Below, in pieces: positions 20,001 to 46,250 of a DNA stretch of 64,000 bases. Each line of letters begins with the position of its first letter. Position 1 is the first letter of the stretch. Source of the DNA: an uncultured Gammaproteobacteria bacterium. GTDB lineage: Bacteria > Patescibacteriota > Microgenomatia > CAYQLK01. The notes beneath the pieces are model-generated. The model was not told the DNA's origin. It did no database searches and worked only from the letters and a program-made list of their open reading frames with translations. A program made the position numbers and the translations under genes. Location: positions 297,322 through 361,321 of the forward strand of contig CAYOLO010000001.1 in the NCBI GenBank assembly GCA_964404855.1, in the 5' to 3' direction.

Positions 20001-22512
20001 CTCCAGATGTATTACCAATTGTGATTGTACCTGTGTAGGAGCTAGTTCCAAGGTTAATCGCGGTTGATCCTGATGTGTTAATGTCAAAAGTGCCGGTGGA
20101 GGTAACACCAGTAGCTCCAGTAATTGCACCAGCGCCTGTAATGTCAAGGGAAGCTGTGTTGAGGAAGTTTGATACAGTTCCTGATATTTCGATAGCGTCT
20201 GTTAGGGTGCCCGAGGTATTGGTAATCATGAGCGCGTTGCTTAAGTTGCTTGAAGCAGCATTGTTTTCAATAAAAATTCCGTTCGTAACAGTTTCTGGAG
20301 TTTTAAGGTTCTCTACCTTGAATAAGGTATCAAAAGCACCAGTGGTAGCTGTGTCGGCTTGGGTTATAAGCATTCCATTAAGTGTGCCAGTTGCGCCTGT
20401 TCCGCTTGGCGTAAGGGTATATGTGTAGCCCGTAGTTGTGGCATCTGTTGTTGGTGTAAAGTTTTGAGCCCAAGTGTAAGTTGCTTGGTTTAGGATAAGG
20501 TTGGCATCGAGATCAAGGGTGTCAGCAAAATCTACAAAGTCAAGAGAGTTGGACGAAGAAGTGGAGTTACAGTTGCCATAGGTTGGTTGGTTACCTGTGC
20601 CGTTGCTTTTAAGACAATCTCCAGATGTGGCGCTTGGGTTGACCTGGTTAAGTACACCACCAGAGGCAATAGTGATAACTGAGCCAACAGTGCTAAGCGA
20701 GGAGAAAGTAATTGTGCCAGAGGAGCTAAGTCCTGTGAATGTAGCTACGCCTGGACCTGTTACACTCCAGTTAGCATCAGAGATAGCAATGTTAGCACTG
20801 CCATTGCCAATGGTGGCTGTGCCTGAATATGAGCTTGTACCAATGTTGATAGCAGTTGAGCCTGATGTGTTGATGTCAAAAGTACCAGTGGAGGTAACAC
20901 CAGTAGCTCCAGTAATTGCACCAGCGCCTGTAATGTCAAGGGAAGCTGTGTTGAGGAAGTTTGATACAGTTCCTGATATTTCGATAGCGTCTGTTAGAGT
21001 TCCAGCTGTGTTGGTAATGTTAATACCATTACTGAGCGTACCTGAGGCTGCATTGTTTTCGATATAAAGCCCGTTTGTGGTTGTTTCTGGAGTTTTAAGG
21101 TTTTCAAGTTTTAGTAGAGAGTCAAAAACGCCTGTATTAGCATTGTCGGATTGAGATATCACAAAACCTTGAAGTGTGCCCGAAGAACCTGTACCTGTTG
21201 GATTGAGTGTGAGCGAGGCTGCGTTTATGGTTGCATCAGAAGTAGGAGTATTAGTGATTTGAATATTGGATCCTTCACCGTTGGTCACGATTAAGTCACC
21301 TGTGCCGTTCGGCGCAAGTGTTAGCGAACCATTGCTGTTAGTGCCAATTGTGGCTGCGCCGCTGAAAATTAGGTTGCCCGAAGAATCTAGAACAGGAACT
21401 TGATTAATATCTGGTGTTTGTGAAGGGAAATAACCAGCTAGAGCGTCGGCGTTAAGTGCATAAGCACTAGAAACTATTCTTTGCCTTGGGGTCATTTCTG
21501 AATCGGCACCGACAGTGACTCCTAGATACAAAGTAGCATTCTCACTAAATAGAGTGCTAGGAATTGTTGTATCTGCAGCACCTGTGTCTCCAAGTAGGAC
21601 TGAAAAAATACCATTCGAGTCTGGTGTAATATTCCAAGTTTTTGATGTCCATTGAGCACTCCCACCTGATGACACAGTGTAGATTTTGAACACAAAGTCG
21701 GTAGCAGAAGTTATTGGAGAACCTGAAGCGTTAGTAATTCGACCTTGGAAAGAAAGAATTCTTGGAGGAGCAACAGCGGCAAGAACTTGACCTTCAAGTG
21801 GGGATGGTTGTGGCGTTTCAAGACTGATTTGGGTTCGGTTGGGGGTAAGCATGAATGTTGATCCAGAGATAACTAGCGCCATTGTGGCGAGCCCAAGGAA
21901 TATTTTTTGTGAGAAGTGTAATTTGGATTTTTTGGTTAGGGTTTTTTGTGGTAAGCCGAGGAGATCTGTTAGTGGCTTGTAAGAAAAACCCCATTTTTTA
22001 AGTTTTTCAAGCTCTTGAGAGAGAGCAAGAAGGCTGATTGCAGCTCCGACAGTCTGCGTTTCGGAGCTGCTGACAGCTTGATTTGCATTGTTTGCCTCAA
22101 TGCTGGCTGTGTTTGTAACTATCTGCTCTGTGGAGTGGTTTGTCAGGTGTGAAAACCCGTTTGCCTCAAACCATTTTGAGAGAGATTTTAGAAATTTGAT
22201 TTGTCGAGAAAGTGTGGATTTAGCAAACTTGTTCTGAACATCCTTGTGGTAGAGCTCGATTGTTTCAATATCGAGTTTGGGATAGTTGGTTCGATTTTGT
22301 TTAATCGACCAAATGACGAATTTCTTTAAATCGGAGCGGTAATTACTATAAGTTGATTTGGATGTTGACGAGAGGGCGAGTGTTTCGAAGTAACCTTTGG
22401 AAGCGTTGAGTATACCAAGAGCAAACTCTTTTTTGGAGTTTTGGACAGGTTTATTTATAGTGCTGGCAGGTATCTTAAGGCCTGAGGCAAACAGGACTTT
22501 TTTCATTGTCAA
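17092..22512 (-). CDS. giant (1806 aa) type-II membrane-anchored surface protein with an N-terminal cytoplasmic integrase-SAM-like domain, one TM, and a huge Thr/Ser/Gly-rich beta-rich ectodomain with internal tandem-duplicated modules
   Basis: N-terminus KSTYSNYRSDLKKFVIWS...IELYH...FAKSTLSRQIKFLKSLSKWF matches the phage-integrase N-terminal SAM-like pattern. TM IFLGLATMALVISGSTFML. Two ~230-aa near-identical modules and two ~150-aa QSFTP...CTTTTSSAW(Q/G)W domains. Confidence 0.75.
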   Translation of the reverse strand: MTMKKVLFASGLKIPASTINKPVQNSKKEFALGILNASKGYFETLALSSTSKSTYSNYRSDLKKFVIWSIKQNRTNYPKLDIETIELYHKDVQNKFAKSTLSRQIKFLKSLSKWFEANGFSHLTNHSTEQIVTNTASIEANNANQAVSSSETQTVGAAISLLALSQELEKLKKWGFSYKPLTDLLGLPQKTLTKKSKLHFSQKIFLGLATMALVISGSTFMLTPNRTQISLETPQPSPLEGQVLAAVAPPRILSFQGRITNASGSPITSATDFVFKIYTVSSGGSAQWTSKTWNITPDSNGIFSVLLGDTGAADTTIPSTLFSENATLYLGVTVGADSEMTPRQRIVSSAYALNADALAGYFPSQTPDINQVPVLDSSGNLIFSGAATIGTNSNGSLTLAPNGTGDLIVTNGEGSNIQITNTPTSDATINAASLTLNPTGTGSSGTLQGFVISQSDNANTGVFDSLLKLENLKTPETTTNGLYIENNAASGTLSNGINITNTAGTLTDAIEISGTVSNFLNTASLDITGAGAITGATGVTSTGTFDINTSGSTAINIGTSSYSGTATIGNGSANIAISDANWSVTGPGVATFTGLSSSGTITFSSLSTVGSVITIASGGVLNQVNPSATSGDCLKSNGTGNQPTYGNCNSTSSSNSLDFVDFADTLDLDANLILNQATYTWAQNFTPTTDATTTGYTYTLTPSGTGATGTLNGMLITQADTATTGAFDTLFKVENLKTPETVTNGIFIENNAASSNLSNALMITNTSGTLTDAIEISGTVSNFLNTASLDITGAGAITGATGVTSTGTFDINTSGSTAINLGTSSYTGTITIGNTSGANALNLRAGSGNFTLDGVAGTTYTVGASTTTGTMTFGGTAQTGLLTLGQSSGTNTVAIGSGTGATTVQIATGATNAKTVQIGTGAVANTITIGSASTTNLSITDDNWSISTAGLITTASDVAVNGGDITTTASTLNIDVANNGIFNFRDGTNNLLRILDTANSDGGEIFSATGAIYADISGTGVAIINSATSGTSDTTAKYQSFTPDTPMSVTAVVAKILSTNGTEEAVACIYDNNSDAPGTLIAMSNQTLNISSTISHVRFSFNTAVPLLGNNKYVLQIALQNTGVGAGCTTTTSSAWQWAVSASDIYSGGRSEASASTDYLFTMEASKNTNHGFFSNSTTVNSATAVKTQSFTPAADIYLSTVQAKISMAGATEEASVCIYDENGSDGAGTLLAGPYQTLNIGSAVTWARFVLTTPVLVQAGSKYVLQVAGQNDGVGASCTTTTSSAWGWVRDTSASYLGGRNNNSATEDSHFVLESSPVASTITLTNGSVIQSNDPTNGEINFGDGTLKVDFGTIDPPYFIDGTKYATYVASMTGQKEETTGVANLTRPEGSTGNFSYQINFPELETSSDLGLFYRITDFGQNMKDLVVLLSANDSRAKVWYERDPANNRLTIFGNCNCEISYRLTAPRFDHEKWGNVANKQDGRGFVPGEAPNYSTSEETEFTEEEILSEITQIQDIIEATNIVANDSITIGQTTLSEENLKLLIGINGSIDGEENSEVTPNNQQVEAQGPITREEIDKMITDAIASSSAVLGASESAQPESSQSAELENQEPQDLTVINLTVEQQATFKDEVEFLNSVSLSNTNIAGSLSQDGIFTLDTTADGLGSQLNVLSGTLYLQNLPTSGGLDLLRGSLVIDTEGLVKIAKLETKDLTVSTITVKGDEENPLNRIAGNTLLTSGYDLFDVETTAVTENSIILLTVEGDLPVAVSVTEKLAGIGFRVKLAQVQTVDLTVSYLIINQELSLN
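19700..21280 (-). repeat. tandem duplication of a ~790-bp coding module inside the giant gene (identical core 20078-20215 = 20870-21007)
   Basis: The antisense track ORFs 20075.. and 20597.. share the identical 45-aa stretch LMSKVPVEVTPVAPVIAPAPVMSREAVLRKFDTVPDISIASVRVP at a 792-bp offset. Confidence 0.6.
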
Positions 22513-22897: not shown

Positions 22898-23428
22898 TTA
22901 ATCCTTATTCTTGAACGCTTTGAATTTGGTAATACCAAGATAGATTACTGTTAATGAAAGAATGCCGATAATTATTCCAGCTAAGAAGTGATTATTTTGA
23001 ATCGCGAATAATAATTTTAGTGGGGCGTTAAGAATAGTGGTTGGAGATTCTGGATTAAGTAATCGATAAAGAGCGATTTGTTGTTTTTCTAATTCGTCTA
23101 TTTTGTCAATTATTTCATCTTTTTCGGGAGGGGTTAGTGGTTTGCCTTTAGTAGGAGTAGGTATAGCAGTTGGAGTCGGTGTAGGGGTGCTGGTGGGTCC
23201 AGGAGTAGGTGTAGATGTTGGTCCTGGGGTTGGTGTTGAAGTGGTGCCTGGAACTGGTGTAGGGGTTGGTGTCGGTGTCGGTGTTGGGGTTGCTGTTGGA
23301 CAAATATTTACACAAGCTGTGGTGTTGACGTCTTCAGCGCGAACTTCTGTTTGAATAATAAACAGTAGTACTAGTGATAGTAGTGGAATGGTTAGTTTGG
23401 GCAGCATTTGGGCAATATTATACTGCAT
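22898..23428 (-). CDS. small secreted Thr/Pro-rich protein with a C-terminal TM anchor
   Basis: Signal peptide, CVNIC, TPTPTPTPTP linker, coiled DEIIDKIDELEKQQ, and a C-terminal TM + KFKAFKNKD. Confidence 0.5.
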   Translation of the reverse strand: MQYNIAQMLPKLTIPLLSLVLLFIIQTEVRAEDVNTTACVNICPTATPTPTPTPTPTPVPGTTSTPTPGPTSTPTPGPTSTPTPTPTAIPTPTKGKPLTPPEKDEIIDKIDELEKQQIALYRLLNPESPTTILNAPLKLLFAIQNNHFLAGIIIGILSLTVIYLGITKFKAFKNKD

Positions 23429-23467: not shown

Positions 23468-23500
23468 TCAAAAAAAAACACTCCCCGAGTGCAGGAGTGC
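23468..23500 (-). terminator. rho-independent terminator for the minus-strand gene 23597..24652
   Basis: Read on the minus strand: cactcc(tgcactcgg)ggagtg followed by T9. Confidence 0.65.
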
Positions 23501-23508
23501 TTTAAGAT

Positions 23509-23596: not shown

Positions 23597-24652
23597 TTAC
23601 TTCTTCTTTTGAATCTCTGCAATAATCTTGCGGCGGTATGCTCTCAGTGCGAGAACTATCAGCATAACGACTACCGCGATTGCAAGTCCAGCGACGGATA
23701 GAGCCTTCCAAGGGATTACCCAGAACGAAGTGCTTGAGCTTACAATGTCATTTTTGAGTCCGTAGCTAGCAATAACTTCTACGGTGTATTTTCCGAAACC
23801 AAATTCTGGATTGAATTTGCCAACGAAACTTCTGACTGCTCCTGGAAGAACCGAAAGGGCAGAGTTGTTAAATGATTCTCTAGAAACTTCGTTGCCGAAC
23901 ATGTTACGGACTATAATGTCTCCAGCAGGGGTAAGATGGACAGAACCTGAGTTTTCAAGTCTGGCTTCGATACTTACTGGTCCAGATTCGTACATAGACT
24001 TGTCTGTTTTGATGCTTGAGATAGAGAGAGCCTCTTCAACATCTCCAGAAACTCTAACTAAAACGACTGGTCCGGTTCTGGTAATAACTTTCGAACCAGT
24101 TCCAGCTGCTTTTTCAGGAGGAGTGGTGGTTATAAAAACAGCGCCAAAATGTCCGCCTGGTTCAGCGTCTTTTGGAACAGCGATTGAGAAACTAAAAGCT
24201 TCAGAAGATTTTGGATCAATGGTAACTTGAGTTTTTGAAGCTCTGATCCAACTAGCTAATGCGTATTGATTATTAAGTGGTGATTCAGAAAATACAGCAT
24301 CACCGTTTTCGTTAATTGTTTCAATATCAGCGAGAGTTACGTAGTATGTAAGCGGGTCGTCTGATTTGTTGTCGATAACAACTTGGTGAGAACTGGTTTG
24401 ACCAGGGTCTAGGTTGAGATCAAACTTGATTGGCGAGAATGTGATGTTGGTTTCAGCAACCTGCTGTTGAGCGGCTTGAGGTTGTGCTGAAGGAGTTGAT
24501 GCACTTGGTACTCCAATTGGTGTTAATGAATTATTTTCGGATTTGAGTGGTTGAGAAGAAGGGTTGGTTTGAGCTAGTACTGGTGAGGTAGCAAGCGAAA
24601 CTATAAAAGCGGACGAAGCCAATGTAATGGCTAGTTTTTTGGGCAGATTCAT
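23597..24652 (-). CDS. cell-surface protein: signal peptide, Q/P-rich linker, beta-rich domain, C-terminal TM anchor + basic tail (CscA/DUF916-like architecture, tentative)
   Basis: MNLPKKLAITLASSAFIVSLATSPVLA signal. C-terminus SVAGLAIAVVVMLIVLALRAYRRK. Confidence 0.6.
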   Translation of the reverse strand: MNLPKKLAITLASSAFIVSLATSPVLAQTNPSSQPLKSENNSLTPIGVPSASTPSAQPQAAQQQVAETNITFSPIKFDLNLDPGQTSSHQVVIDNKSDDPLTYYVTLADIETINENGDAVFSESPLNNQYALASWIRASKTQVTIDPKSSEAFSFSIAVPKDAEPGGHFGAVFITTTPPEKAAGTGSKVITRTGPVVLVRVSGDVEEALSISSIKTDKSMYESGPVSIEARLENSGSVHLTPAGDIIVRNMFGNEVSRESFNNSALSVLPGAVRSFVGKFNPEFGFGKYTVEVIASYGLKNDIVSSSTSFWVIPWKALSVAGLAIAVVVMLIVLALRAYRRKIIAEIQKKK

Positions 24653-24688: not shown

Positions 24689-25744
24689 TTAAAAGATACC
24701 ATAACTAGTATAAGTTAGGGTATTCGTATAGGTACCGGCAGGTTGTGTACCAGTGATTTCTAGCGAGTAGCCAATATCTGCAGTTCCACCAGCTCCTGTG
24801 CCGTTTACAGGTCCACCAGCGTCAAATATTTTGTAAGAAGTTGTACCAGTGAATCCTCCAAATATTGTTCCAGTTGTGTCAAAAGCAGAACCTGATACCA
24901 CATCGGTAGAGGTAAAGCCAAAATGACCCCCTGAAGTTGGTGTGGACCAAGTTGTTTCTGAGTTAAGAGCAGGCGGGGTACCATCATCGAATGAGTTAAT
25001 AGTGTCAGCAGTACCGTTAGTTAGGTTAGCTGACTGTCTAACTGAAGTATTGTGACCGTTAGATGCGTTAGTAGAGACCGTTAGTGTGTGGCAGTGGGTG
25101 TATTGAGTAGCAGTTGATAATGCAACTCCGTTATTGAAGTTAATTGAAGAGGCAGTAGTCCCACTTGATTCACAAGTGTCTCCACCGGAACCAACTGTGC
25201 CAGAGCTTTTGGCGGCTATTGTGAAGTCGTATGTTGCGTTGATTGTGGCGGTAACAGTAACTTGATCTTCTGTTAAGACATCAACGGCAACATTGGAAGA
25301 ATCTTCGTAAGTTCCATCGTTGTTGGCGTCTGTTTCGACTGTGATTACATAAGTAGCAGCCGAAGGGTTAGTGCTAGCTGGAACAACAAAGGTAACAGTA
25401 TCACCGGCATCACAGCTTGAAACAGAGGTGATTGTGCTAGCAAAAGGGCTAGCGCCATTGAATATACCAGCAGTTCCTGCACAAGACCCGTTACCGGTGA
25501 ATGTTGGAGTTAGTGAACCAAACGAAAAGTCGGCAGTAGTTAGTCTGACTCTAGAGGTTGAGCCGAGAGTAGAAGCTAGAGTAAAGGTAAAAGTATGAGT
25601 TGAAGATACGCCAGTTTTAAGCCTGGACATATTGTCAGAAACATCGACTAGTGCGGCAGCTCTGGCAGTCTTGGGCGGGACAAGTGTAAGTAGAATGCTA
25701 ACTATTGGCAGAATAGCAAGAAGTGATAGCTTAGAAATTTTCAT
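24689..25744 (-). CDS. secreted beta-rich surface protein, paralogue 1 of 3 (C-terminal ...GTYTNTLTYTSYGIF)
   Basis: Signal peptide with ARAAA cleavage. Ser/Thr/Gly-rich. Shares a C-terminal domain with the next two genes and with the C-terminus of the 2556-aa protein. Confidence 0.7.
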   Translation of the reverse strand: MKISKLSLLAILPIVSILLTLVPPKTARAAALVDVSDNMSRLKTGVSSTHTFTFTLASTLGSTSRVRLTTADFSFGSLTPTFTGNGSCAGTAGIFNGASPFASTITSVSSCDAGDTVTFVVPASTNPSAATYVITVETDANNDGTYEDSSNVAVDVLTEDQVTVTATINATYDFTIAAKSSGTVGSGGDTCESSGTTASSINFNNGVALSTATQYTHCHTLTVSTNASNGHNTSVRQSANLTNGTADTINSFDDGTPPALNSETTWSTPTSGGHFGFTSTDVVSGSAFDTTGTIFGGFTGTTSYKIFDAGGPVNGTGAGGTADIGYSLEITGTQPAGTYTNTLTYTSYGIF

Positions 25745-25747
25745 GGT

Positions 25748-26809
25748 CTAAAAAATACCGTAGCTAGTGTAGGTGAGAGTGTTGGTGTAAGTACCAGGCT
25801 CCTGTGTACCAAGGATTTCTAGAGAGTAACCGACATTACTAGCAAAGGCGCTAACAGCAGCTGATTCGTCCTGAATCTTGTAGGCAGTGGTACCAGTGAA
25901 CCCGGCAAAGCTTGTGCCGACGGATGAGAAAGATGACCCACCCCAAGTATCACTGGAAGCAAAGCCGAAATGACCTGGTGAGGTAGGTGTTGACCAAGTT
26001 GTTTCTGAGCCAACTGAAGGTGGTGTACCATCATCAAACGAGTTGATAGTGTCTGAGGTACCGTTGGTTAGGTTAGCAGATTGGGCAACAAAGCTTCTAA
26101 AACCAGCAGTAGCGTTAGTGGAGACTGTTAAAGTATGACAGTGAGTGTATTGGGTTGAAGTCGAAAGATTAACACCGTTGTTGAAGTTAATTGAAGAAGC
26201 AGTCGTTCCACTCGATTCGCAAGTGTCACCACCAGAACCAACAGTACCAGATGTTTTGGCAGTAACAGCAAAGTCAAAAGTAGCACCAATTGAAGCTGAA
26301 ACAGTAACTTGATCCTCAGTTAAGATGTCAACGGCAACATTAGACGAGTCTCCGTCTGTGTAGGTGCCGTCGTTGTTAGGGTCAGTTTCAATAACGAATA
26401 CATAAGTAGCAGCTGCAGGGTTGGAAATAGCTGATGTTGTAAGCGTGACCACATCACCTGAACCACAACCAGAAACAGAAGTAAGGTTGGTAACATTTGA
26501 TGACCAAGCGCCGGTTGTAGCTGAACAGCCACCTGTAGCAGAGAAACCTGGGGTACCGGTGTAGGAGAAGCTTGCTTGGGTGATTCTTATTTTAGATGAG
26601 CTACCAAGAGTAGTGGATAAAGTGAATGTCCAAGTGTGGGTGGCAGAAACACCAGTTTTTTGACGGGAAAGGGCATTGCTAACACTCGTAAGTGAGGCTG
26701 CGGCTGTTTGTTTGGGGGTAAGCGTAATTAAAGTGGTCGAAAGAACAACTGCAATAAGGCAGAGTACCGATAGTTTTTTAACGGTTTTGGTTGTTTGGCG
26801 CAGTCGCAT
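25748..26809 (-). CDS. secreted beta-rich surface protein, paralogue 2 of 3
   Basis: Signal peptide. The C-terminal ~198 aa are identical to paralogue 3. Confidence 0.7.
   Translation of the reverse strand: MRLRQTTKTVKKLSVLCLIAVVLSTTLITLTPKQTAAASLTSVSNALSRQKTGVSATHTWTFTLSTTLGSSSKIRITQASFSYTGTPGFSATGGCSATTGAWSSNVTNLTSVSGCGSGDVVTLTTSAISNPAAATYVFVIETDPNNDGTYTDGDSSNVAVDILTEDQVTVSASIGATFDFAVTAKTSGTVGSGGDTCESSGTTASSINFNNGVNLSTSTQYTHCHTLTVSTNATAGFRSFVAQSANLTNGTSDTINSFDDGTPPSVGSETTWSTPTSPGHFGFASSDTWGGSSFSSVGTSFAGFTGTTAYKIQDESAAVSAFASNVGYSLEILGTQEPGTYTNTLTYTSYGIF
25770..26346. repeat. ~580-bp perfect direct repeat, copy A (3' half of paralogue 2)
   Basis: Identical embedded track ORFs 25819..26037 and 26973..27191, and identical flanking sequence. 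The offset is 1154 bp. Confidence 0.8.
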
Positions 26810-26901
26810 TCTTAATATAAAAAGATGTTATCCCAATGATTACAATTAGCTACTGGTTTGTCAATAACTGGAATTGGTTAATTTAACTTAACAATAAAAC
26901 T

Positions 26902-27981
26902 CTAAAAAATTCCGTAACTGGTGTAGGTAAGAGTGTTGGTGTAAGTACCAGGCTCCTGTGTACCAAGGATTTCTAGAGAGTAACCGACATTACTAGCAAA
27001 GGCGCTAACAGCAGCTGATTCGTCCTGAATCTTGTAGGCAGTGGTACCAGTGAACCCGGCAAAGCTTGTGCCGACGGATGAGAAAGATGACCCACCCCAA
27101 GTATCACTGGAAGCAAAGCCGAAATGACCTGGTGAGGTAGGTGTTGACCAAGTTGTTTCTGAGCCAACTGAAGGTGGTGTACCATCATCAAACGAGTTGA
27201 TAGTGTCTGAGGTACCGTTGGTTAGGTTAGCAGATTGGGCAACAAAGCTTCTAAAACCAGCAGTAGCGTTAGTGGAGACTGTTAAAGTATGACAGTGAGT
27301 GTATTGGGTTGAAGTCGAAAGATTAACACCGTTGTTGAAGTTAATTGAAGAAGCAGTCGTTCCACTCGATTCGCAAGTGTCACCACCAGAACCAACAGTA
27401 CCAGATGTTTTGGCAGTAACAGCAAAGTCAAAAGTAGCACCAATTGAAGCTGAAACAGTAACTTGATCTTCAGTTAAGATGTCAACGGCAACATTAGACG
27501 AGTCTTCGTATGTTCCATCGTTGTTAGCGTCGGTTTCTACAACAATGACATATGTGTTTGCGGCAGGATTTGTGCTAGCTGGAACAGTAAAAGTAACGGT
27601 GTCACCAGAATCACAGCTTGTAACAGAGGTTATGGAGCTAACAAAAGGGCTAGAACCGTTAAAGACACCAGCTGTTCCAGCACAAGAGTTGTTACCAGTA
27701 AATGTTGGAGTTAGTGAACCAAACGAAAAGCTAGAGGTGGTTAGTTTGACTCTAGAAGTGCCACCTAGAGTAGAGGCTAAAGTAAAAGTAAAAGTGTGAG
27801 TAGATGAAATACCAGTTTTTTGTCTGGACATTGCGTCAGTTACATTGACAAGGGAAGCAGCATTTACGGTTTTGCCACCGAACATGACGAAGTTAGGAAG
27901 ACCTATTAAAAGGGCAAGTACGAAAAGGAGCAGTTTTTTGAACTTATTCGTGTGAACTGACATTATTGTTATTATCATCAC
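26902..27981 (-). CDS. secreted beta-rich surface protein, paralogue 3 of 3 (mosaic: N-terminus like paralogue 1, C-terminus identical to paralogue 2)
   Basis: N-terminal half LVNVTDAMSRQKTGISSTHTFTFTLASTLGGTSRVKLTT... is ~85% identical to paralogue 1. The C-terminal half is 100% identical to paralogue 2. Confidence 0.7.
   Translation of the reverse strand: MMIITIMSVHTNKFKKLLLFVLALLIGLPNFVMFGGKTVNAASLVNVTDAMSRQKTGISSTHTFTFTLASTLGGTSRVKLTTSSFSFGSLTPTFTGNNSCAGTAGVFNGSSPFVSSITSVTSCDSGDTVTFTVPASTNPAANTYVIVVETDANNDGTYEDSSNVAVDILTEDQVTVSASIGATFDFAVTAKTSGTVGSGGDTCESSGTTASSINFNNGVNLSTSTQYTHCHTLTVSTNATAGFRSFVAQSANLTNGTSDTINSFDDGTPPSVGSETTWSTPTSPGHFGFASSDTWGGSSFSSVGTSFAGFTGTTAYKIQDESAAVSAFASNVGYSLEILGTQEPGTYTNTLTYTSYGIF
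26924..27500. repeat. ~580-bp perfect direct repeat, copy B (3' half of paralogue 3)
   Basis: See copy A. Confidence 0.8.
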
Positions 27982-27992
27982 AAAAAATATCT

Positions 27993-28925
27993 CTAGTTGT
28001 CAATTGGCTTTTTGGACTTTTTGAAGACTTTGATGCTAAGAATAATTGCAGTTAGTAAAAGTACTATTGTAATTAGTGGATAAGCGATATATCCAAGTGA
28101 GGGAATAATATAAATTGTGAATTCTTGAGATGTGTACTTAACACCATTGTCCCCAGTGACGGTGGAGCTTACCTTGTAGATGCCTGGAGTGGTGTCGGTT
28201 ATGTAGATTGCTGGTGGAATATTTTTTTCGAGAGTTGTTGTCATTTGTCTGACAGCTCCCGCTAAGATGTTTTGGGGAATAATCGGGATTATTTTTTGGC
28301 TTTTGCTATCAATTATCGAAGTCAAAACTATGGAACCTTCGATAGTTTGAAATTTATTTAGATTGTTTTGAACAGTGAGAGAAAGAGTAGATTTACCGAT
28401 TTGCTGAATTTTTTCTCCCGTTAAGGATATTTTGATATCACCTTCGATTTTTTTCTTGTCAAAAAGTGAAAGGATGATGTTTGAAGCTACAGACGGTTGG
28501 ATAGTAGCGGAGCTTTTTTTGGAATCAGGTTCAGGTGAAATTGGAGAGGCTAAAATTGCAAAATAAAAATCTTGTTCTTCAATTGTTTCAGGAACATTGA
28601 TGCGAAACCCGATTGTTTGATCTTCAGCACTGGTTGCTTTGGTAATTGGCGGGAAAAACTGCACCCATTTTGTAACAGGGTAGTTGGGGTTATCGGGTAA
28701 GAGTTTGATAAGGCCTTGAGTGCCATCGGCTTCAAATTGGCGAATGCTGAATTGATAAGTACTACCGGTATCGGCGGAAAACTTAAAAGTGCCATTAATG
28801 CCATTACCTGGTTTGCCTTTTATTTCGAAATGAGAGGGTTCAATCGCGACGGTCGAAGCATTAACTACATTATATATGGAGAAAAAAATTATTAAGCTAA
28901 AAAGCGGGGCAAGGACTTTTTTCAT
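27993..28925 (-). CDS. cell-surface protein: signal peptide, two beta-rich domains, C-terminal TM anchor + KKSKK tail (CscA/DUF916-DUF3324-like architecture, tentative)
   Basis: MKKVLAPLFSLIIFFSIYNVVNA signal. C-terminus YPLITIVLLLTAIILSIKVFKKSKK. Confidence 0.6.
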   Translation of the reverse strand: MKKVLAPLFSLIIFFSIYNVVNASTVAIEPSHFEIKGKPGNGINGTFKFSADTGSTYQFSIRQFEADGTQGLIKLLPDNPNYPVTKWVQFFPPITKATSAEDQTIGFRINVPETIEEQDFYFAILASPISPEPDSKKSSATIQPSVASNIILSLFDKKKIEGDIKISLTGEKIQQIGKSTLSLTVQNNLNKFQTIEGSIVLTSIIDSKSQKIIPIIPQNILAGAVRQMTTTLEKNIPPAIYITDTTPGIYKVSSTVTGDNGVKYTSQEFTIYIIPSLGYIAYPLITIVLLLTAIILSIKVFKKSKKPIDN

Positions 28926-28940
28926 TGGTTGTATTTTAGC

Positions 28941-31900
28941 TTAGTAGGTTCCGGTTAGGATATAGGTGACTTTTGTTTCATAATTACCAGCTTCTTGAGC
29001 AGAACTCACATTGACTTTGTAGGTAACAGTTATTTCACTGTCATTAGTTGTGCCGACATTGGACATAACGGCGACTGGGCTTTCTGCAAAAGCTAAGTCT
29101 GCAAAATGGCGGTAGTTACTGGTAAAGGCTGCATCAGTGCCAGTGACATTGGCTAAAGTGTAACCGAAACCATAAGTGGTGCTTGATGACCAAGCGCCAG
29201 CTGAGGTATGAGTAATATTGCTTGCGTCGCCAAGAACATCAGGGATATAGAATCCGGCGTAGTTAATATTGGCAAGCCTTGTTACTTCTTGAGCGGTTAC
29301 TTGATAGCCGCCTGGGGCATCAGAGACGACTTGTAGATTGTGATTGTTGGTAGCTGGAGTACCTGGAGTAAGAGTACCAAAGGCGATTGTGGTTGAAGAA
29401 ATTGTTAGCTCGAGTCGATTGGAGCCAATATTCCAGTATTGAAAACCAGAACCAAGGTCGTAGTTGGTTGATTCTCCTGGTCCAGCTGCTAGTACGCCAC
29501 CTGTATCTGTAAGTGTGTAATTAGTGGACGATTTTCTGTCGCCGAAACTACCAAATGCTCCATCCATTTCGAAGTTGGTTGAGACTAGTTTGCCTGAACC
29601 AGCAGGTGGTGGGTCAGCGGTGGTGTTGGCAGTGTCACTTCCTGTATCAGTACCATCGTTGGCATCTGTGTAGCTGAGGGTAATAACATCATCTAGGACC
29701 ATTTCGATGTTATTGTTCGAGGTTGTGTATGTTCCCCACGCTGAAGTAATACTGCCTCGGAAAATAGCTGTGGAGTTGCCGGTTTCGGTTAAAGTTTTGG
29801 TTTCGGAATCGCCAGTGGTAGTGGTAATGCTTACAGATAGTGTTTCGGCGCTGCCGCCGTTAAGGTTAACGGAAACATCAGTAACAGTCATATAAATAGT
29901 GTCGCCTTGAGTGAAGTTGTTGTCCTCGGAATATCCGCTGTCTGTTAATAGAATGGTATTTGAGTCGTAGTTGAAGTCGCCAGCGTTGGTCATAAGTCCG
30001 CCGTTATTACATACAGTGCCGGTGACATCAAGAGAGAAGCTGTCTAGATCGTAAGTACCGGTTATGATACAGAAATTTTCGTTGACTGTGGTGTTAACTT
30101 GTTGAGTGAAAGTATCAGTGTTGCCATCGTCAGAGTCGATTGTGAGGTTGCGCCATGTGTAGTTTGGAATATTGTAGACATCAGCAACTGTGTCGTTATC
30201 GCCAACAAAAATTACATAAGATCCGACCGAAAGAGTAGGTGTGGTTGGCAGTTCGTTACCTTCCATTTGTAGTGTATCGGCTACAGTAAATGTTGAACCA
30301 CAGTTGAAGTCAAAGGAGTTGAGGAAGAATGTACCGTCGGTGATTGTACAGGTTGAGCCAGTAGTGAAGTCTGTTGCCATTTGAGCAGTACCTGAGGATT
30401 TGTTGACGGTAAATACGCCTGACATTGTTCCGGCGTTTTGAGTGATGTTTTGGGTTGTGGCTGTACCACCCATGGTAAGTGTAAGATTGGCACCACCAAA
30501 GGTGTCGGTCGTACTCATTGAGAAATCACCTTGGACGGTCATGGTGTAGGCAGATCCTGGGTTTGAAAAAGCTCCGTCTGTGCGCGTGAAGTCATCGGTA
30601 ATTGTACAGGTGCTGGCGAGTGTTAGTGTGGAGCCTGCGTGGGTCATATTTTGTTCAACTGCACCCGTAATTGTGCCGCCTTCACAGTCAAGCGTGGAAT
30701 CAGTGTCTACGCCACCGTCTTCAAAAACCAATGTATTGCCTGCAACAACCAGAGTGCCACCAGAATCTTTAAGCACACTACCTCGAGTCGTAATTGTGGT
30801 TCCAGTCATTGAACCATTAACCGTAATTGAGCCGTATGTCGTGACACTGGCAACCATTGTAATTACACAACTTGCACTTAAGGTAAAGTCAGCTCCTTGA
30901 ATGGTTTTGGCAATATTGTGGGTACCAGCAAGGGTAGTAGAACAAGTAAGAGTAGAATCGTCGGTAGTGTCGGCGCCATCAAAAGTTAAGGTTTTGCCAC
31001 TAAGGTTGAATGTTGTTCCAGATGTATGGGTATAGTCTTTTTCAAGGGTAATTATTGTTCCAGAGTAGGTCATCGTAGCGGAGGCTCCATTGGTAAGACT
31101 ACCTCCATTGCCAGAAGTGGAATCCAGATTAAAAGTACTTCCAGAAATATTAGTTGTACCATTGTTGACATAGTTACCTGTCATTGAGATTGTTGTTACA
31201 GCAACAATACAACTGGTGTTAATTGTGACGGTTGCTCCGCCAGTTTTGTTAAAAGCTAAAGTTCCACCTAGGGTTCCACAGATAACTGTACTGTTGTCAG
31301 AACTACTTGACCCGTCGAGGGTAACAGTAATGCCTGTAAGGTTAAAAGTTCCGCTTTGGGTAAAATCACCCTCAATTGTCATGGCAGTTCCAGAGTAGGT
31401 AATTGTTGCACCACCATTATTGGTTAAATCTCCTTCGCCGCCAGTAAGATTATCGAGATTAAAAGTTGTACCACCATTATTAATCGTGCCGTTATTGATA
31501 ATATTTCCTGTCATCGAGATACCTGAACCTGGGGAGGCAACGGTACATCCGCTACCAATGGTGATGTCACCGTCACCGGTTTTGTTAAAACCAATACTGC
31601 CGCCAATTGTGCCTGAACAGGTGACAGTTGAGTCGTCGGAGGTTGTACTGCCGTCTAATGAAATTGTTCCGCCGTTATGAGTGTATGTGCCGTCATTAGT
31701 GAAGTTTTTGGCTACAGTCATTGCGACAGTTGCAGAATTTTGATAAGTCGCACTGGTGTTAATCAAAAAGTTTCCGTTTACATCGACTGTTGGATCGTTG
31801 GTGTCGGCGTTGACGGTTACTGAGTTAGTGTCATCGCCAATGGTTAAGTTGTTAGCTATGGTTATTGTTTGTGACGCTCCTGAGCCAAGAGTGTATGTGG

Positions 31901-34900
31901 CACTAGCTGCACTTGGTTCGAATGAGAGATTATATAGACTAATTGTGCCTGAACCACCGAAGGTTGGGGTGGCGCTGGCAGCTGTTTTGGCACTAAAGGT
32001 ACCACTAGCGCTTTGGGTAATGGAACCGCTAATTGAGACATCGCCCGAGCCTGCAGTGGTGGAGCCGACGGTGATATTGTTGGTACCAAGAGCAAATGTT
32101 CCAGTTGTGACAGTTAAATCGCCATTGGCTGTAATTGTACCCCCAGCGTTGAATGTTTCAGAAGCGTTAAGGGTTAGATTAGTAAATGTTAGAGTTGGAA
32201 TTGTGGTGTCTCCGGAACCGTTGTTGCCGGTAAATGCAAAGGTCGAAGTGCTACCAGTTAGGGTGGAGGAGGCGTTGACGGCTGTTGGAGTGCCGTCAGT
32301 GCCAGAAAGTGTCCAAGTACGGTTGCCGGCATCAAGAACTGTTGGGGCAGAGTCGCCGCCTTCGCCAAGTGTTAAGTCACCAGTAACATTAATTGCGCCA
32401 GTACCGCCTGTTTGGGTGGTAATTGTTCTTGAGGAGCCTGAGGAATTGGAAAATGTAAGGTTGACGAAATTCCAAGCAGTGGCACCCGAGGTAGCGCCAA
32501 AGTTTTGGGCTGCGGCCACTCTTTGTTTGAATGTACTTGTGCCTGTGTAGTTAATCGTACCGCCACCGGAAATTGCACCATTTACTGTAGTAGTTACCGA
32601 GGTTGAACTGCCAATTGTTCCTGTAACTACAAGCGAATTAGTAACAGTCATTGAAGAAGTTACTGTAGTAGTGAAGGTATTACTGATTGTTAGATTATAA
32701 ATTGCGATTGCACCAGAACCACCGCCAATATTGCCCGTACCGTTCATTGTGACGGTTGGTGTGCCAGCAGTGTTGGCGACTGCGCCAGTTGAAGTAGTTG
32801 TAATGTCACCACCAGCTATTGTCGTGTCGGCGTTAATATTAAGGGTGGCGCCAGCATCTACGAGAATGTCTCTCGACATAGCGTTGGTGGCGCTGCCGAG
32901 CGTGGCTGTAGCGCTGTCGTCGACATGAAAGTCAGCTGTTCCATTAGTCGTAACTGTTCCGTTTGGGGTGTAGGTTTTGCCGGTAAAAACTAATAGCTCT
33001 ATACCACTAGTAACGCTAAGGTTGTTACTCGATACAGTATATGGGATATCGCCATCATTACCGCTATCGTAGGTGTCCATATCGGTATTATCAACAGCTG
33101 TGGCGTCGTCAGATGTTACCGTCACAGTATTGGTATAGACAATATTACCTGTTGAGTTGCCAGAGCCATCAAATCTGATTACTGTTGCTCCGTCTGTGGC
33201 GTCATTATCAATCCAAACGACGATGCCTTCGCCGGCTGCTGGAGCAGAAATGGTCGCGTCAGAAAAAGCACCAGTTGAGTCATTACAGAAGGTTGTGGTG
33301 GTGACGCCGTTGCTGCGGATTGCTACATTGTAAGTTGGAGTGGTGTGATCACAGAGAGCTGGTGCCGAAGAAGTGCCCGCAGTATAGACATTACCTGACA
33401 CAGTGATTGGGTCGGCAGGGATAGACACGCTTGGGTAGGTGCAAGCTGACGAAAGACAGTCCGTAACTCCAGAAGGATTGTAAGTAAATACAGGCGTTAA
33501 TTGGTCGTTATCGTAAGCGCGGAAATAGTAGGTGGTAGCGGCGGCAACATCTTCGGCTTTTAGGGGATAGTCTACTTCCAGTATTGCCGAGGCAGAGTGG
33601 TCCATGTTGGCTCCAGCTGCAGCGTCTTTGTCAGATGTATAAGTGCCGTTTTGGGTTGTACCTGTTAGTGCGCTAGAGCCTACTGCGGTGTTGTCTGAAC
33701 AAGAACCACAGGTTTCTCCGCTAGTAGCGTAGCGCCAGACTGCAGATGTTTCTCCCGTGTCGCCAACATCAGTCCAAGTGCAAGTATCAGGGACGGTTGA
33801 TGGGGTACATCCGGAGGTGTATTGGAGTTTTTTTCTGGCGTCAGTTTGAGCTACGGCACCTCTTTCGTAATATTGCATTCTAAGGCGAATAAATTCTTCT
33901 TTGGCGACACTGCCTGTAGTGTTTTCTGCGGCCACTCCAGAAGATGGCGTGTTATTTGTTTCATCGTTATAGAATCGCCAATTGCGCTGCCAAGGTGTAT
34001 AGATTTTCCAAGTAAACTCATAGCTAAATGCCGAACCTTCGCCTCCGGTAGTACCGTCTGGAGCGGATGCGTTAGGGCAGGCAAGACCGTACATTGAGCC
34101 GTTGACTTCGACATCAGCTTGGGCAGTGCCACCAAAGCTTGAGCCGGTCCAAAGCTGGGCATACATGTCACAGTCAACATCGACAGTAAGCATCATGATG
34201 TCATCGGTATTTTCGTTCGGATAGAGTCTTATCCCTAATGAGTCATCTGATGTGGTAACGCCTGTTCTGGTCTTAGTGCCGTAACTAGAGGTTGGAGTGT
34301 AGGTCATAAAGTTACCGTCAGTTGTGGTACCTCCGTCGTTATAAACGACCAAACCAAGCCCTGATGTGCCACCAGCCTGTTGGCGCTGAAATACCGACGA
34401 AGATTGTTTGGCGTTTAATGTTTCTGTTCCTGTATCTGGACAGTTGGTAGTGTTGACACCGCCACTACACTCTGTCCAGCCGTTTGTGGAGTTGTCTGCC
34501 CGCCAGACGGCATGACTATAGTCGTCACCTGAGGTTCCAGTAGAGACCATAATCCTACTACTAGTCGGGTCGCCGTTTGTTTCTATCCAGAATCCAGCAC
34601 TCGCGTCAGTAAAGGCGTTATTCTCTCCACCCCAGCCTGAGCCAACGGTATAGACTTGATAGTTAACGTTGCTGTTTGTTGTGTGGAGATAGTTGACAAT
34701 GAATGTGTTGCTACTGCCACCACCTTGCCAAGCACCGTCAAAACATTGAGCAACAGTACATCCGGTTAGTCCTGCATCCAGTGCGGCAGAGAGACAGCTG
34801 AATGAACTGCCGTCCCAATAGCAAGCGAAAAGGTCGGAGTTAGTATCGGCAATTAGTACCATAATTCGATTAGATCTTTTGTCAGCGAGACGGCTACCAT

Positions 34901-36611
34901 CACTGATTACGCGAATCCATTGAGGTGTGCCGCCCGTACCTCCTGTGTGGAAGTCGACTTCGTTAGTAGCAGATGGTGATCCTGGAGAGGAGTCTGGTGA
35001 CCAAGCTGAACCATCCCAGAGTGCGTAGTAGAATTTGTCAGTAACACTATCTCCGTAGACAACCATTGCTCGACCGGAGAGTGATTCGTAGGCTATATCA
35101 AAAGCTCTTTCACAAGTGCTGGCGGTTTGAGCAGTATCACAGTCTTGGGTTGGTGTTGTGCCTGGATTGTTCCATTGAGCGGTAAAGTCTCCGTTGGCGT
35201 CACATCCTGTCGTACATGTTTCGACATATAAATCCCCGTTGACTTTGAGAGTGCCGATTATTTCTTCTTCTCTGGTTGGGGAAGTTTCAGCTACAGTCCA
35301 AAGTATAAAGCTAGTACTATTGGCGGCACCGTTAAATTCCGACCCAAAAGTTGAAGTTGAGGTAAAGGTTTTTCCTCTTAGGACGCCGTTAGTAGCTGAG
35401 GTATCGCCGTAAAATAAGTTACCGTTGGCTGTAACAGCGTCAGAGGCGATTTGCCACTCTCTGATTTCGCCAAAATCACCAATGATTAAAGGACCAAGGA
35501 GAAAAAACTCTGGACTGATATCTGGAGCGTCGAAGATATAACTAAGATTAAGTGTTTGCCCAGCAACAAGACTTGCTTGCCAAGTGAGTTTTTTGTCGTC
35601 ACCTTCGGTTGATTCAGTAAATACACCTTGTGATTTAGTGATAATAAAATTACTTGGAACTGTTTCAATAATTGTGCCTGTGTAGTTAGTATTGGCGGTA
35701 ATTTGCAGACTGACTTTGTAGTTAGCAGGAGGATAGATACGAGATGGGCCGGAACGTTTAATGATAAATGGATTATTTCCATTTACTTCGAAGAAGTCAT
35801 TAATTGTTCTGGTACCGTTTTTTGTTTCTGCCGAGTATTTGATGGTGTATGTGCCTATTTCGTCGCCGATTTGATATTCAGAAGAGTAGTCTGGGATATC
35901 AGTGATGTTATCAAGTCCACATTCACCGCTGGGGTTAATTTGACCATCTTTGGACGAGAGAATGCTGGTGTTTTTGGAAGGAGTAGTTATTTCGACAGTT
36001 AATTTGGCATCACAAATCGTGTGTCCTAAGTCGTCGACAGTTCCAAAGGATAGTTTGGCTAAATCATTAGGAGAGTAAATAGTTTGGTCGAAGTTAATTG
36101 CTAATACTCCCCATGTGAAATCTTGTTTAATATTTTTGATTTGCCCGTTTTTTTCTATTTCAACATCAAGTGTATATTTTCCTGGAGTAAATGAGCTTGC
36201 AGTGATTGTGTTGGTGTGAATATTGAATTCATTGGAGTTTTGTTTGATTGAAGTACCAATATTCTTAGCAATATTTCCATCAGGTTTTAAAATTTGAGCC
36301 TTAATATTATTGGAGGATAGAATTTGGGTCTCGTTGAGTTTGAGTTTGAATGTAGGGGACTCATCGACTCTAAAAGAGTTTTTTGGAAGTTCGACTACTG
36401 CTTTTGGATAAATTTCTGATTTGGGTAATGATTTAAAAACTAGAACAGTGCTTGCAATGATAATTAAGACAAAAATAAAAGCAAAAACAGTTTTAGAGTG
36501 GTCGGTTATTTTTTTGACCCTGCTAGTGGTGGAAAGTATTAGGTGGGCTTGAGGCTGAAGGGTAAAATTTTTTCTACGAAAAGGGTAGAAGTTTGGCAGG
36601 ATAGTTTTCAC
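28941..36611 (-). CDS. giant (2556 aa) N-terminally anchored surface protein: beta-helix/adhesin-like Thr/Gly/Ser/Asn-rich repeats, and a C-terminal domain homologous to the three small paralogues
   Basis: N-terminal signal-anchor FAFIFVLIIIASTVLVF. Long G/T/S/N-rich repeats. The C-terminus ...AGAWSSSTTYGFGYT...AQEAGNYETKVTYILTGTY resembles the paralogues' ...TTWSTPTSGGHFGFTST...TQPAGTYTNTLTYTSYGIF. Confidence 0.75.
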   Translation of the reverse strand: MKTILPNFYPFRRKNFTLQPQAHLILSTTSRVKKITDHSKTVFAFIFVLIIIASTVLVFKSLPKSEIYPKAVVELPKNSFRVDESPTFKLKLNETQILSSNNIKAQILKPDGNIAKNIGTSIKQNSNEFNIHTNTITASSFTPGKYTLDVEIEKNGQIKNIKQDFTWGVLAINFDQTIYSPNDLAKLSFGTVDDLGHTICDAKLTVEITTPSKNTSILSSKDGQINPSGECGLDNITDIPDYSSEYQIGDEIGTYTIKYSAETKNGTRTINDFFEVNGNNPFIIKRSGPSRIYPPANYKVSLQITANTNYTGTIIETVPSNFIITKSQGVFTESTEGDDKKLTWQASLVAGQTLNLSYIFDAPDISPEFFLLGPLIIGDFGEIREWQIASDAVTANGNLFYGDTSATNGVLRGKTFTSTSTFGSEFNGAANSTSFILWTVAETSPTREEEIIGTLKVNGDLYVETCTTGCDANGDFTAQWNNPGTTPTQDCDTAQTASTCERAFDIAYESLSGRAMVVYGDSVTDKFYYALWDGSAWSPDSSPGSPSATNEVDFHTGGTGGTPQWIRVISDGSRLADKRSNRIMVLIADTNSDLFACYWDGSSFSCLSAALDAGLTGCTVAQCFDGAWQGGGSSNTFIVNYLHTTNSNVNYQVYTVGSGWGGENNAFTDASAGFWIETNGDPTSSRIMVSTGTSGDDYSHAVWRADNSTNGWTECSGGVNTTNCPDTGTETLNAKQSSSVFQRQQAGGTSGLGLVVYNDGGTTTDGNFMTYTPTSSYGTKTRTGVTTSDDSLGIRLYPNENTDDIMMLTVDVDCDMYAQLWTGSSFGGTAQADVEVNGSMYGLACPNASAPDGTTGGEGSAFSYEFTWKIYTPWQRNWRFYNDETNNTPSSGVAAENTTGSVAKEEFIRLRMQYYERGAVAQTDARKKLQYTSGCTPSTVPDTCTWTDVGDTGETSAVWRYATSGETCGSCSDNTAVGSSALTGTTQNGTYTSDKDAAAGANMDHSASAILEVDYPLKAEDVAAATTYYFRAYDNDQLTPVFTYNPSGVTDCLSSACTYPSVSIPADPITVSGNVYTAGTSSAPALCDHTTPTYNVAIRSNGVTTTTFCNDSTGAFSDATISAPAAGEGIVVWIDNDATDGATVIRFDGSGNSTGNIVYTNTVTVTSDDATAVDNTDMDTYDSGNDGDIPYTVSSNNLSVTSGIELLVFTGKTYTPNGTVTTNGTADFHVDDSATATLGSATNAMSRDILVDAGATLNINADTTIAGGDITTTSTGAVANTAGTPTVTMNGTGNIGGGSGAIAIYNLTISNTFTTTVTSSMTVTNSLVVTGTIGSSTSVTTTVNGAISGGGTINYTGTSTFKQRVAAAQNFGATSGATAWNFVNLTFSNSSGSSRTITTQTGGTGAINVTGDLTLGEGGDSAPTVLDAGNRTWTLSGTDGTPTAVNASSTLTGSTSTFAFTGNNGSGDTTIPTLTFTNLTLNASETFNAGGTITANGDLTVTTGTFALGTNNITVGSTTAGSGDVSISGSITQSASGTFSAKTAASATPTFGGSGTISLYNLSFEPSAASATYTLGSGASQTITIANNLTIGDDTNSVTVNADTNDPTVDVNGNFLINTSATYQNSATVAMTVAKNFTNDGTYTHNGGTISLDGSTTSDDSTVTCSGTIGGSIGFNKTGDGDITIGSGCTVASPGSGISMTGNIINNGTINNGGTTFNLDNLTGGEGDLTNNGGATITYSGTAMTIEGDFTQSGTFNLTGITVTLDGSSSSDNSTVICGTLGGTLAFNKTGGATVTINTSCIVAVTTISMTGNYVNNGTTNISGSTFNLDSTSGNGGSLTNGASATMTYSGTIITLEKDYTHTSGTTFNLSGKTLTFDGADTTDDSTLTCSTTLAGTHNIAKTIQGADFTLSASCVITMVASVTTYGSITVNGSMTGTTITTRGSVLKDSGGTLVVAGNTLVFEDGGVDTDSTLDCEGGTITGAVEQNMTHAGSTLTLASTCTITDDFTRTDGAFSNPGSAYTMTVQGDFSMSTTDTFGGANLTLTMGGTATTQNITQNAGTMSGVFTVNKSSGTAQMATDFTTGSTCTITDGTFFLNSFDFNCGSTFTVADTLQMEGNELPTTPTLSVGSYVIFVGDNDTVADVYNIPNYTWRNLTIDSDDGNTDTFTQQVNTTVNENFCIITGTYDLDSFSLDVTGTVCNNGGLMTNAGDFNYDSNTILLTDSGYSEDNNFTQGDTIYMTVTDVSVNLNGGSAETLSVSITTTTGDSETKTLTETGNSTAIFRGSITSAWGTYTTSNNNIEMVLDDVITLSYTDANDGTDTGSDTANTTADPPPAGSGKLVSTNFEMDGAFGSFGDRKSSTNYTLTDTGGVLAAGPGESTNYDLGSGFQYWNIGSNRLELTISSTTIAFGTLTPGTPATNNHNLQVVSDAPGGYQVTAQEVTRLANINYAGFYIPDVLGDASNITHTSAGAWSSSTTYGFGYTLANVTGTDAAFTSNYRHFADLAFAESPVAVMSNVGTTNDSEITVTYKVNVSSAQEAGNYETKVTYILTGTY

Positions 36612-42092: not shown

Positions 42093-42114
42093 GTAGCTTA
42101 AGTTTAGTAAAAAA

Positions 42115-44641: not shown

Positions 44642-44647
44642 CTATAA

Positions 44648-46231: not shown

Positions 46232-46250
46232 TTATCAAAATATTTTAAAT

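Follow-up and report, generated by a model that had tools for sequence, protein, structure and literature searches.

We analyzed a 64,000-nucleotide stretch of DNA (the window; positions 297,322–361,321 of contig CAYOLO010000001.1, assembly GCA_964404855.1) that carries six genes packed closely on the minus strand between positions 23597 and 36611, with intergenic gaps of 3–92 bp. Together they encode one giant protein of 2556 amino acids (aa), three small paralogues, and two membrane-anchored proteins. The giant protein and the three paralogues end in the same C-terminal module, which has no Pfam model and which we call domain X. The nearest named relatives of the proteins of this locus are annotated as 'hypothetical protein' in Candidatus Curtissbacteria (class Microgenomatia, Patescibacteria, also known as the candidate phyla radiation, CPR). 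The features of the locus, in the direction of transcription, are:

28941–36611, minus strand: giant protein, 2556 aa; judged from its translation, an N-terminal hydrophobic signal or anchor, a Thr/Gly/Asn-rich repetitive region of ~2300 aa, an extension, and domain X.
29412–29612, minus strand: extension of the giant protein in front of domain X, conserved, ~65 aa, with three S-x-N-[YF] motifs.
28944–29411, minus strand: domain X of the giant protein (aa ~2400–2556), a predicted pilin-type, strand-accepting immunoglobulin-like (Ig-like) domain.
27993–28925, minus strand: 310-aa membrane-anchored protein with a signal peptide, a beta-rich ectodomain, and a C-terminal transmembrane (TM) helix with a basic tail; a divergent WxLIP or PamC/D-like paralogue, chaperone-like.
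26902–27981, minus strand: paralogue 3, 359 aa as listed (GTG start uncertain), two-domain and pilin-like, with domain X at ~26905–27375.
25748–26809, minus strand: paralogue 2, 353 aa, two-domain and pilin-like, with domain X at ~25751–26221.
24689–25744, minus strand: paralogue 1, 351 aa, with a signal peptide, an N-terminal domain (NTD), a linker strand, and domain X.
~25274–25657, minus strand: nine-strand beta-sandwich NTD of paralogue 1 (aa ~30–157), from an AlphaFold2 (AF2) model.
~25199–25273, minus strand: conserved linker strand of paralogue 1 (aa ~158–182).
24692–25174, minus strand: domain X of paralogue 1 (aa ~191–351).
23597–24652, minus strand: 351-aa WxLIP homologue with a signal peptide, DUF916/PGBD-like and DUF3324/HBD-like Ig domains, and a C-terminal TM helix with a basic tail; a proposed membrane-anchored chaperone or anchor (PamC/D-like).
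23475–23503, minus strand: terminator-like hairpin from a consensus scan, 11 pairs and a T-run, just 3' of the gene for the 351-aa WxLIP homologue.

The hairpin likely marks the 3' end of the operon, with terminator-like sites in the region not exceeding the shuffled expectation. Just past it, a 176-aa protein (22898–23428, minus strand) combines a signal peptide and a C-terminal TM helix with a long repeat of Pro and Thr (TPTPTP...). Scanned against Pfam and NCBIfam, the giant protein had no significant match; nor did the other X-bearing proteins or the relatives of the four fall into any family, and all that the scans gave were weak partial Ig-like matches (e.g. GBS104-like_Ig).

An earlier note, made from the sequence of the window alone, had proposed that the four C-termini share one module. 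The end sequences it quoted are present exactly, and profile matches confirm the proposal. By BLASTP, the last 219 aa of the giant protein were 26–29% identical to the paralogues over ~150 aa, with marginal E values of 0.008–0.011. A search with paralogue 1 returned 24 relatives, none with a Pfam domain. We built a hidden Markov model (HMM) of the C-terminal ~200 columns from 16 distant relatives only (25–34% identical in the alignment), leaving out the sequences of the window and their close relatives. This independent profile matched the giant protein at E 1.1e-20 (68.9 bits), over residues 2400–2557 of the stop-to-stop open reading frame (ORF), i.e. residues 2399–2556 of the protein, and the match ended exactly at the C-terminus. 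Among the 387 six-frame ORFs of the window, only the giant protein and the three paralogues scored. An alignment of the family of the giant C-terminus (A2) to the family of the paralogue C-termini with hhalign gave a probability of 99.7% (E 7e-27, 145 columns). The note had also said what would overturn its proposal, namely a likeness of mere Thr/Gly composition with no conserved positions, as might be expected of Thr/Gly/Ser-rich surface proteins. The marginal pairwise E values of ~0.01 and the Thr/Gly-richness of both proteins would fit that explanation. On the other hand, the independent-profile match and the 99.7% hhalign probability establish homology rather than composition, and a Thr/Gly-rich 1806-aa protein in the same window (17092–22512) went unmatched by the profile. 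A purely compositional resemblance is thus refuted and retains a negligible probability, and the homology of the four C-terminal domains is confirmed.

What the proteins share is a folded domain of ~157–160 aa and not only the two motifs that the note had put forward. For the first of these, W-x(5,9)-G-[H/-]-F-G-[FY] is the more accurate pattern, as paralogue 1 has HFGF in place of GFG, and the terminal one takes the family-wide form Q-x-[AP]-G-x-Y-x-N-x-[IL]-T-[YF]-x-x-x-[PG]-x-[YF]-COOH. Further landmarks of domain X are I-x-F-G and L-T-V-S-x-x-A-x-G-[YF]-x-V. The terminal motif forms the final beta-strand of the folded domain and is no separate tag akin to a signal peptide.

Domain X forms a large family. 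With a profile of 102 sequences, at least 3281 clusters (50% identity) were found at E ≤ 1e-3, and 1392 at E ≤ 1e-10, among 1.84 billion representatives. Where an organism name was given, the hits came mostly from Patescibacteria (Levy-, Roizman-, Shapiro-, Woese-, and Curtissbacteria, and Paceibacterota). In a sample of these proteins, domain X ended within three residues of the C-terminus in 179 of the 179 proteins whose match reached the end of the model, and the final residue was Y or F in 163 of them. The host proteins ranged from ~200 to 2559 aa (135 of the 190 sampled were shorter than 300 aa), and the domain was attached to very different N-terminal regions. The last 223 aa of the giant protein retrieved 103 relatives, nearly all of them stand-alone secreted proteins of ~240 aa. 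The ~65-aa extension is common to the giant protein and this stand-alone family of ~245 aa, and it is nearly invariant in the A2/A4 alignments; it may serve as an intermolecular strand or a linker. We also noted a 257-aa protein on a 2.2-kb Logan contig (P0025), in which the first ~15 residues of the giant protein (MKTILPNFY.F.RK) are followed by a 70%-identical copy of its last 223 aa. As read from the sequences, this suggests either that the giant protein arose by expansion between signal peptide and module, with P0025 representing the ancestral stand-alone tip module, or that P0025 is a deletion derivative of the giant protein.

For the last 223 aa of the giant protein, AF2 returned a predicted local distance difference test (pLDDT) score of 95–98 for residues 65–223 and of ~50 for the first 62 residues, so that the extension is not folded in the monomer model despite its strong sequence conservation. 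The model of domain X resembled mainly pilins that assemble by donor-strand exchange (TLP-1b, CsuA/B, CfaB, the FimH pilin domain, and TasA). For paralogue 1 (mean pLDDT 84.8), nine strands were predicted within residues 33–157, then a single strand at 172–179, and then the C-terminal domain (CTD). The linker and CTD are better conserved among the paralogues than the NTD. The giant protein matched the HMM of the paralogue family only from position 34 on, i.e. downstream of the linker strand. Lacking this strand, it would only accept one, as does the acceptor-only tip subunit PamT (see below). On these models, domain X is most likely a pilin-type, strand-accepting Ig-like domain. Beta-strand donation, one example that the earlier note had offered, agrees with the predicted fold class, and as a function it would follow from the models by inference. 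A Foldseek search of the PDB with the two-domain model of the paralogue was uninformative and returned only generic two-Ig adhesins (FnBPA, ClfA/B, and integrins; template modelling score ~0.2). Searches of the PDB sequences with profiles A1 and A2 found nothing.

The two membrane-anchored products of the operon are homologous to WxLIP, the partner protein of WxL domains in Firmicutes, and the evidence for this is solid. The 351-aa WxLIP homologue matched Pfam WxLIP_PGBD (DUF916, PF06030) at E 1.9e-11, above the curated cut-off. Reference WxL clusters were taken from Enterococcus, Bacillus, Lactiplantibacillus, and Lactococcus plasmids, and a full-length HMM of Firmicutes WxLIP aligned positions 42–277 of its 346 to this protein (E 1.9e-10), spanning both Ig-like domains. 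As read from the sequence, the protein ends in a hydrophobic helix and a basic tail, as WxLIPs do. The 310-aa protein had no Pfam match of its own, and was collinear with the 351-aa WxLIP homologue over 237 aa (BLASTP E 6e-4). An HMM of the CPR chaperone-like family, started from eight CPR seed proteins and iterated on 43 CPR loci and the window, included both proteins (E 1e-77 for the 351-aa and 1.3e-52 for the 310-aa protein). At least one family member was found in 39 of the 44 sources, and at least two in 28. This CPR family aligned with Firmicutes WxLIP over 233 columns (hhalign probability 98.3%, E 1.7e-14). A profile of 13 CPR members, six of which matched PF06030, also found the solved EfmWxLIP1 chains (PDB 9i25_C and 9i1y_A) at E ~3e-6. 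The PDB entries are a WxL:EfmWxLIP1 complex (9i25, chains A and C) and free EfmWxLIP1 (9i1y); our literature search found no paper that describes them.

The arrangement recurs in related genomes. A genome scan with the tight subset A5 returned 37 related loci; Ca. M. amalyticus was not among them. In the Microgenomates loci, the order is a small X protein (~245 aa), a chaperone-like protein, a protein of ~480–516 aa that ends in domain X, and a second chaperone-like protein. Two or more X proteins were present in 15 of the 19 loci of at least 14 kb. These loci and the window have in common a flank that encodes LeuRS, ComEA, ComEC, a Lactamase_B protein, ArgRS, and an M16 peptidase, and because of this same flank we regard the locus in the window as their syntenic equivalent. 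The position of the small X protein is occupied in the window by the 2556-aa protein; the homology between the two spans the last 223 aa of the larger one and includes the extension. The X/chaperone operon directly adjoins ComEA-ComEC in loci L008/L009, L012, L013, and L014, and in the window the flank (39720–48375) starts only after a gene for a 762-aa Wzy_C/TPR membrane protein.

For the CPR bacterium Ca. Mycosynbacter amalyticus, two filament structures have been solved (Troman et al., bioRxiv June 2026, 10.64898/2026.03.03.709456; PamA and PamB, WP_260763287.1 and WP_260763280.1; PDB 25PZ/25QA), and the products of our operon resemble the Pam proteins as described there. PamA, PamB, and PamE each consist of a nine-strand NTD, a donated linker strand, and a truncated Ig-like CTD that accepts the linker of the next subunit; linker and CTD are their most conserved parts (10.64898/2026.03.03.709456). 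The paralogues of the window are likewise secreted, two-domain proteins with a predicted nine-strand NTD, a conserved linker strand, and an Ig-like CTD whose groove may be open, and in them too conservation is lower in the NTD than in the linker and CTD. At 351–359 aa they are near PamB in size (38.7 kDa), and the 445–516-aa X proteins of related loci are near PamA (55.3 kDa). PamT is a CTD-only tip subunit (10.64898/2026.03.03.709456), to which the putatively acceptor-only module of the giant protein, devoid of a linker, might correspond. PamC and PamD, two-domain chaperones of the FimC/PapD type, have a TM helix at the C-terminus (10.64898/2026.03.03.709456), and the two Ig-like partner proteins encoded in the operon likewise have two domains and a C-terminal TM helix. 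The predicted fold class is that of donor-strand-exchange pilins. Both bacteria belong to the same superphylum, and Pam homologues have been reported mainly from Saccharimonadia and Microgenomatia, among them a Roizmanbacteria protein ~21% identical to PamA (10.64898/2026.03.03.709456).

We therefore favor, with a probability of roughly 70%, the reading that domain X is the strand-accepting domain of a chaperone-assisted surface fibre of Patescibacteria, most likely the Pam pilus system. All six products of the operon would be exported by Sec. The 310-aa protein and the 351-aa WxLIP homologue would temporarily insert a beta-strand of their own into the open groove of every domain X, and the three paralogues would then polymerize head-to-tail, the linker strand of one subunit entering domain X of its neighbor (donor-strand exchange). 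The giant protein, with a domain X and no linker strand, could only accept a strand, and might sit at the distal tip and display its ~2300 aa of adhesin-like repeats. The base of the fibre would be tethered to the membrane through a WxLIP-like protein.

Several points weigh against this assignment. We found no PamR-like anchor (RbmA-like, with two fibronectin type III domains and a TM helix) in the window; the 176-aa Pro/Thr-rich TM protein had no fibronectin type III or RbmA match and lies beyond the terminator-like hairpin. The giant protein and the stand-alone X family carry a conserved N-terminal extension of ~60 aa, which the preprint does not describe for PamT. The open groove and strand exchange would be read from models of monomers. 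Lastly, the case for Pam membership is built on architecture, taxonomy, and fold class; as the M. amalyticus proteins were compared by their published description and not by sequences or coordinates, we consider membership probable rather than proven.

The earlier note had named WxL as one example of what the module might be, and the alternatives to the fibre are best weighed from there. One is that domain X is a divergent WxL domain, i.e. a non-covalent peptidoglycan anchor; it and WxLIP would make up a static platform for display of the giant protein, and no fibre would form. The gene content follows the pattern of a WxL cluster, in that WxLIP homologues lie beside small and large proteins with a common extreme C-terminal domain. 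There is also a collinear resemblance between the two domains: I-x-F-G recurs, LTVSxGxxGYQV of domain X faces VQVxDxRGxxGWxL of WxL, and AGxYxNxITYIxxPxY faces AxxYxxTLTWxLxDAP; an annotated WxL protein of Bacillus mycoides ends in ...SYESKITYSIVTGP, the giant protein in ...NYETKVTYILTGTY. Yet PF13731 matched none of the four proteins of the window, nor any of 25 A1-family members and eight relatives of the giant C-terminus (E limits 1 to 10). The two Trp-x-Leu motifs, which WxL domains carry on adjacent strands, are both absent; the sole collinear, non-significant register places them on G-Y-Q-V and T-[YF]-[IV]-x, and the conserved Trp of domain X lies elsewhere, so its W-S motif is not the counterpart of the WxL motif. 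Profile-profile comparisons were equivocal. Small profiles gave P values of 0.03 and 0.009, and large full-length profiles gave an hhalign score of 31.6 (P 9e-4), above 60 block-shuffled nulls, but once signal peptides and N-termini were trimmed the score fell to 16.7 against a shuffled null of 17.2 ± 2.7. Cross-family HMM scores were slightly but consistently higher than reversed and shuffled controls, by only 2–4 bits and with sequences that are not independent. Since the trimmed score equals the null and the full-length score was inflated by signal peptides, we do not claim homology between domain X and WxL. The WxL suggestion thus holds for the WxLIP homologues and the cluster-like gene content, and not for a demonstrated sequence homology of domain X to WxL (PF13731). 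Whether domain X is a WxL domain is a question on which architecture speaks for and the statistics do not lend support, and we put it at somewhat below even odds. The static platform seems unlikely, all the more as CPR proteins whose described layout is that of our paralogues form filaments by donor-strand exchange (10.64898/2026.03.03.709456). It also overlaps with the fibre reading, because WxL itself is predicted to be completed by a strand of WxLIP (PMC10599100).

A second alternative would make domain X a C-terminal sorting or secretion tag, comparable to the C-terminal domains of the type IX secretion system (T9SS) or other cleaved sorting domains, which would be removed after delivering otherwise unrelated cargo to one shared machine for export or attachment. 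The strictly C-terminal position (179/179), the conserved aromatic end, and the very different N-terminal regions are what such a tag would look like. But most sampled members stand alone with no cargo to sort (135 of 190 being shorter than 300 aa), the domain is ~160 aa in length with a pilin-like predicted fold, and instead of a translocon, its conserved partners are WxLIP-like Ig-fold proteins. Scans of the six operon products and ten flanking products, a part of the ORFs of the window, turned up neither a sortase nor any other family of sorting enzymes. We judge a sorting tag to be quite improbable. The broader proposal of the note, that the common module serves attachment or assembly, is supported by its strictly C-terminal position on small and large proteins, its pilin-like predicted fold, and the WxLIP homologues in the operon; a role in fibre assembly, which we prefer, would be one form of it.

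Some further observations concern the genes of the locus and their surroundings. Paralogue 3 is a mosaic: its NTD is 83% identical to that of paralogue 1 and only 58% to that of paralogue 2, while its linker and domain X are identical to those of paralogue 2 at 189 of 189 aa and 595 of 600 nucleotides. From these sequences it looks like the product of a recent gene conversion or recombination with a junction at the NTD/linker boundary. A TTGACA and an extended -10 TG (10/12) lie directly upstream of paralogue 2 (26836–26864) and paralogue 3 (27974–28003) on the minus strand, and these two sites are among the region's three top promoter-like matches. They could be internal promoters of the pilin-like genes, or may be due to chance; matches in the promoter consensus scan of the region were not above chance, and promoter-like sites were below the shuffled expectation. 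The 1806-aa protein (17092–22512, minus strand) is a second Thr/Gly-rich giant, with no domain X and nothing significant in Pfam; the N-terminus, inspected by eye, looks similar to a phage-integrase SAM-like domain. Related loci also have giants on that side of the operon, of 3455–7082 aa (L009 18982+, L012 17018+, and L013 17117+), each preceded by a small ORF or an N-terminal region with weak Phage_int_SAM Pfam matches. Genes for tRNA-Ala(UGC), 23S, and 5S rRNA are grouped at 49470–53364, with no 16S rRNA gene within the 64-kb window, and 16S is apparently not linked to 23S-5S.

CPR bacteria are thought to need attachment to host cells, and their genomes are rich in giant unannotated surface proteins. 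The locus in the window suggests that at least some of these giants are mounted through a pilin-type C-terminal module, and the conserved syntenic operon of the Microgenomates loci offers an annotation rule for thousands of 'hypothetical proteins'. The homology of the partner proteins to WxLIP connects the CPR Pam pilus with WxL clusters, known from enterococci, listeriae, and lactobacilli and represented by a solved complex (PDB 9i25). WxLIP has been predicted to complete the beta-sandwich of its WxL partner with a strand, in a paper in which the words chaperone and pilus do not occur (PMC10599100), and the Pam preprint does not mention WxL, DUF916, or WxLIP (10.64898/2026.03.03.709456); the link between CPR Pam-type operons and Firmicutes WxL clusters is made neither in that preprint nor in the other papers that we consulted. 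It predicts that WxL proteins are assembled by strand complementation on a membrane-anchored chaperone, and that the Pam chaperones are DUF916/DUF3324 proteins. As a tentative proposal, for which we see slightly less than an even chance, the Firmicutes WxL clusters and the CPR Pam-type pili could both descend from an ancient system of single-membrane bacteria that worked by chaperone-assisted strand complementation with no usher, with domain X as the CPR counterpart of the WxL domain. If so, WxLIP would be a membrane-anchored pilin chaperone or anchor rather than a host-binding protein, the 'cell-wall-binding' WxL proteins would be pilin-like subunits, and the Curtissbacteria operon would show how giant CPR surface proteins mount on such fibres.

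Among known systems, chaperone-usher and other donor-strand fibres (Fim, Pap, Csu, and CFA/I; TasA, CupE, archaeal cannulae and threads, and the TLP-1 pond-water fibrils) have no detectable sequence similarity to the proteins of the window. Chaperone-usher pili are alike in their tip adhesins with a C-terminal pilin domain (FimH, PapG, and CfaE) and in their two-Ig-domain helper protein. By contrast, the helpers of the window are membrane-anchored, and the predicted donor strand is an internal linker instead of an N-terminal extension. We found no Pfam match to an usher or to PapD (PF00345/PF02753) in the six operon products or in 13 CPR chaperone-like proteins. CPR bacteria lack an outer membrane.

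WxL clusters (Hassan & Williamson 2022; Hassan et al. 2023), defined here as at least two PF13731 proteins within four genes of a WxLIP (DUF916-DUF3324-TM), share with our locus a WxLIP homologue, small and large secreted proteins with a common extreme C-terminal domain, and a gene order like that of the Enterococcus gilvus cluster (L002; a large adhesin, three small proteins, and WxLIP). In addition, WxLIP is predicted to complete the sandwich of its partner with a strand. Unlike those clusters, the operon has two WxLIP paralogues, its 'small' proteins have a sandwich domain added at the N-terminus as well as a linker strand, and its host is a CPR bacterium and not of the Bacillus or Lactobacillus type; furthermore, WxL clusters have been described as peptidoglycan-bound platforms, not as fibres. 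The closest counterpart, the Pam system, differs in its flank (ATP synthase, as opposed to LeuRS-ComEA-ComEC in the window), in that the window has three tandem, recombining pilin paralogues, and in its single-domain PamT, in place of which the window has a putative acceptor-only module fused to a protein of 2556 aa. Such a fusion of a giant protein to a tip-type module is a feature that the Pam preprint does not describe. Collectively, the locus combines the architecture of a WxL cluster with a predicted mechanism like that of Pam.

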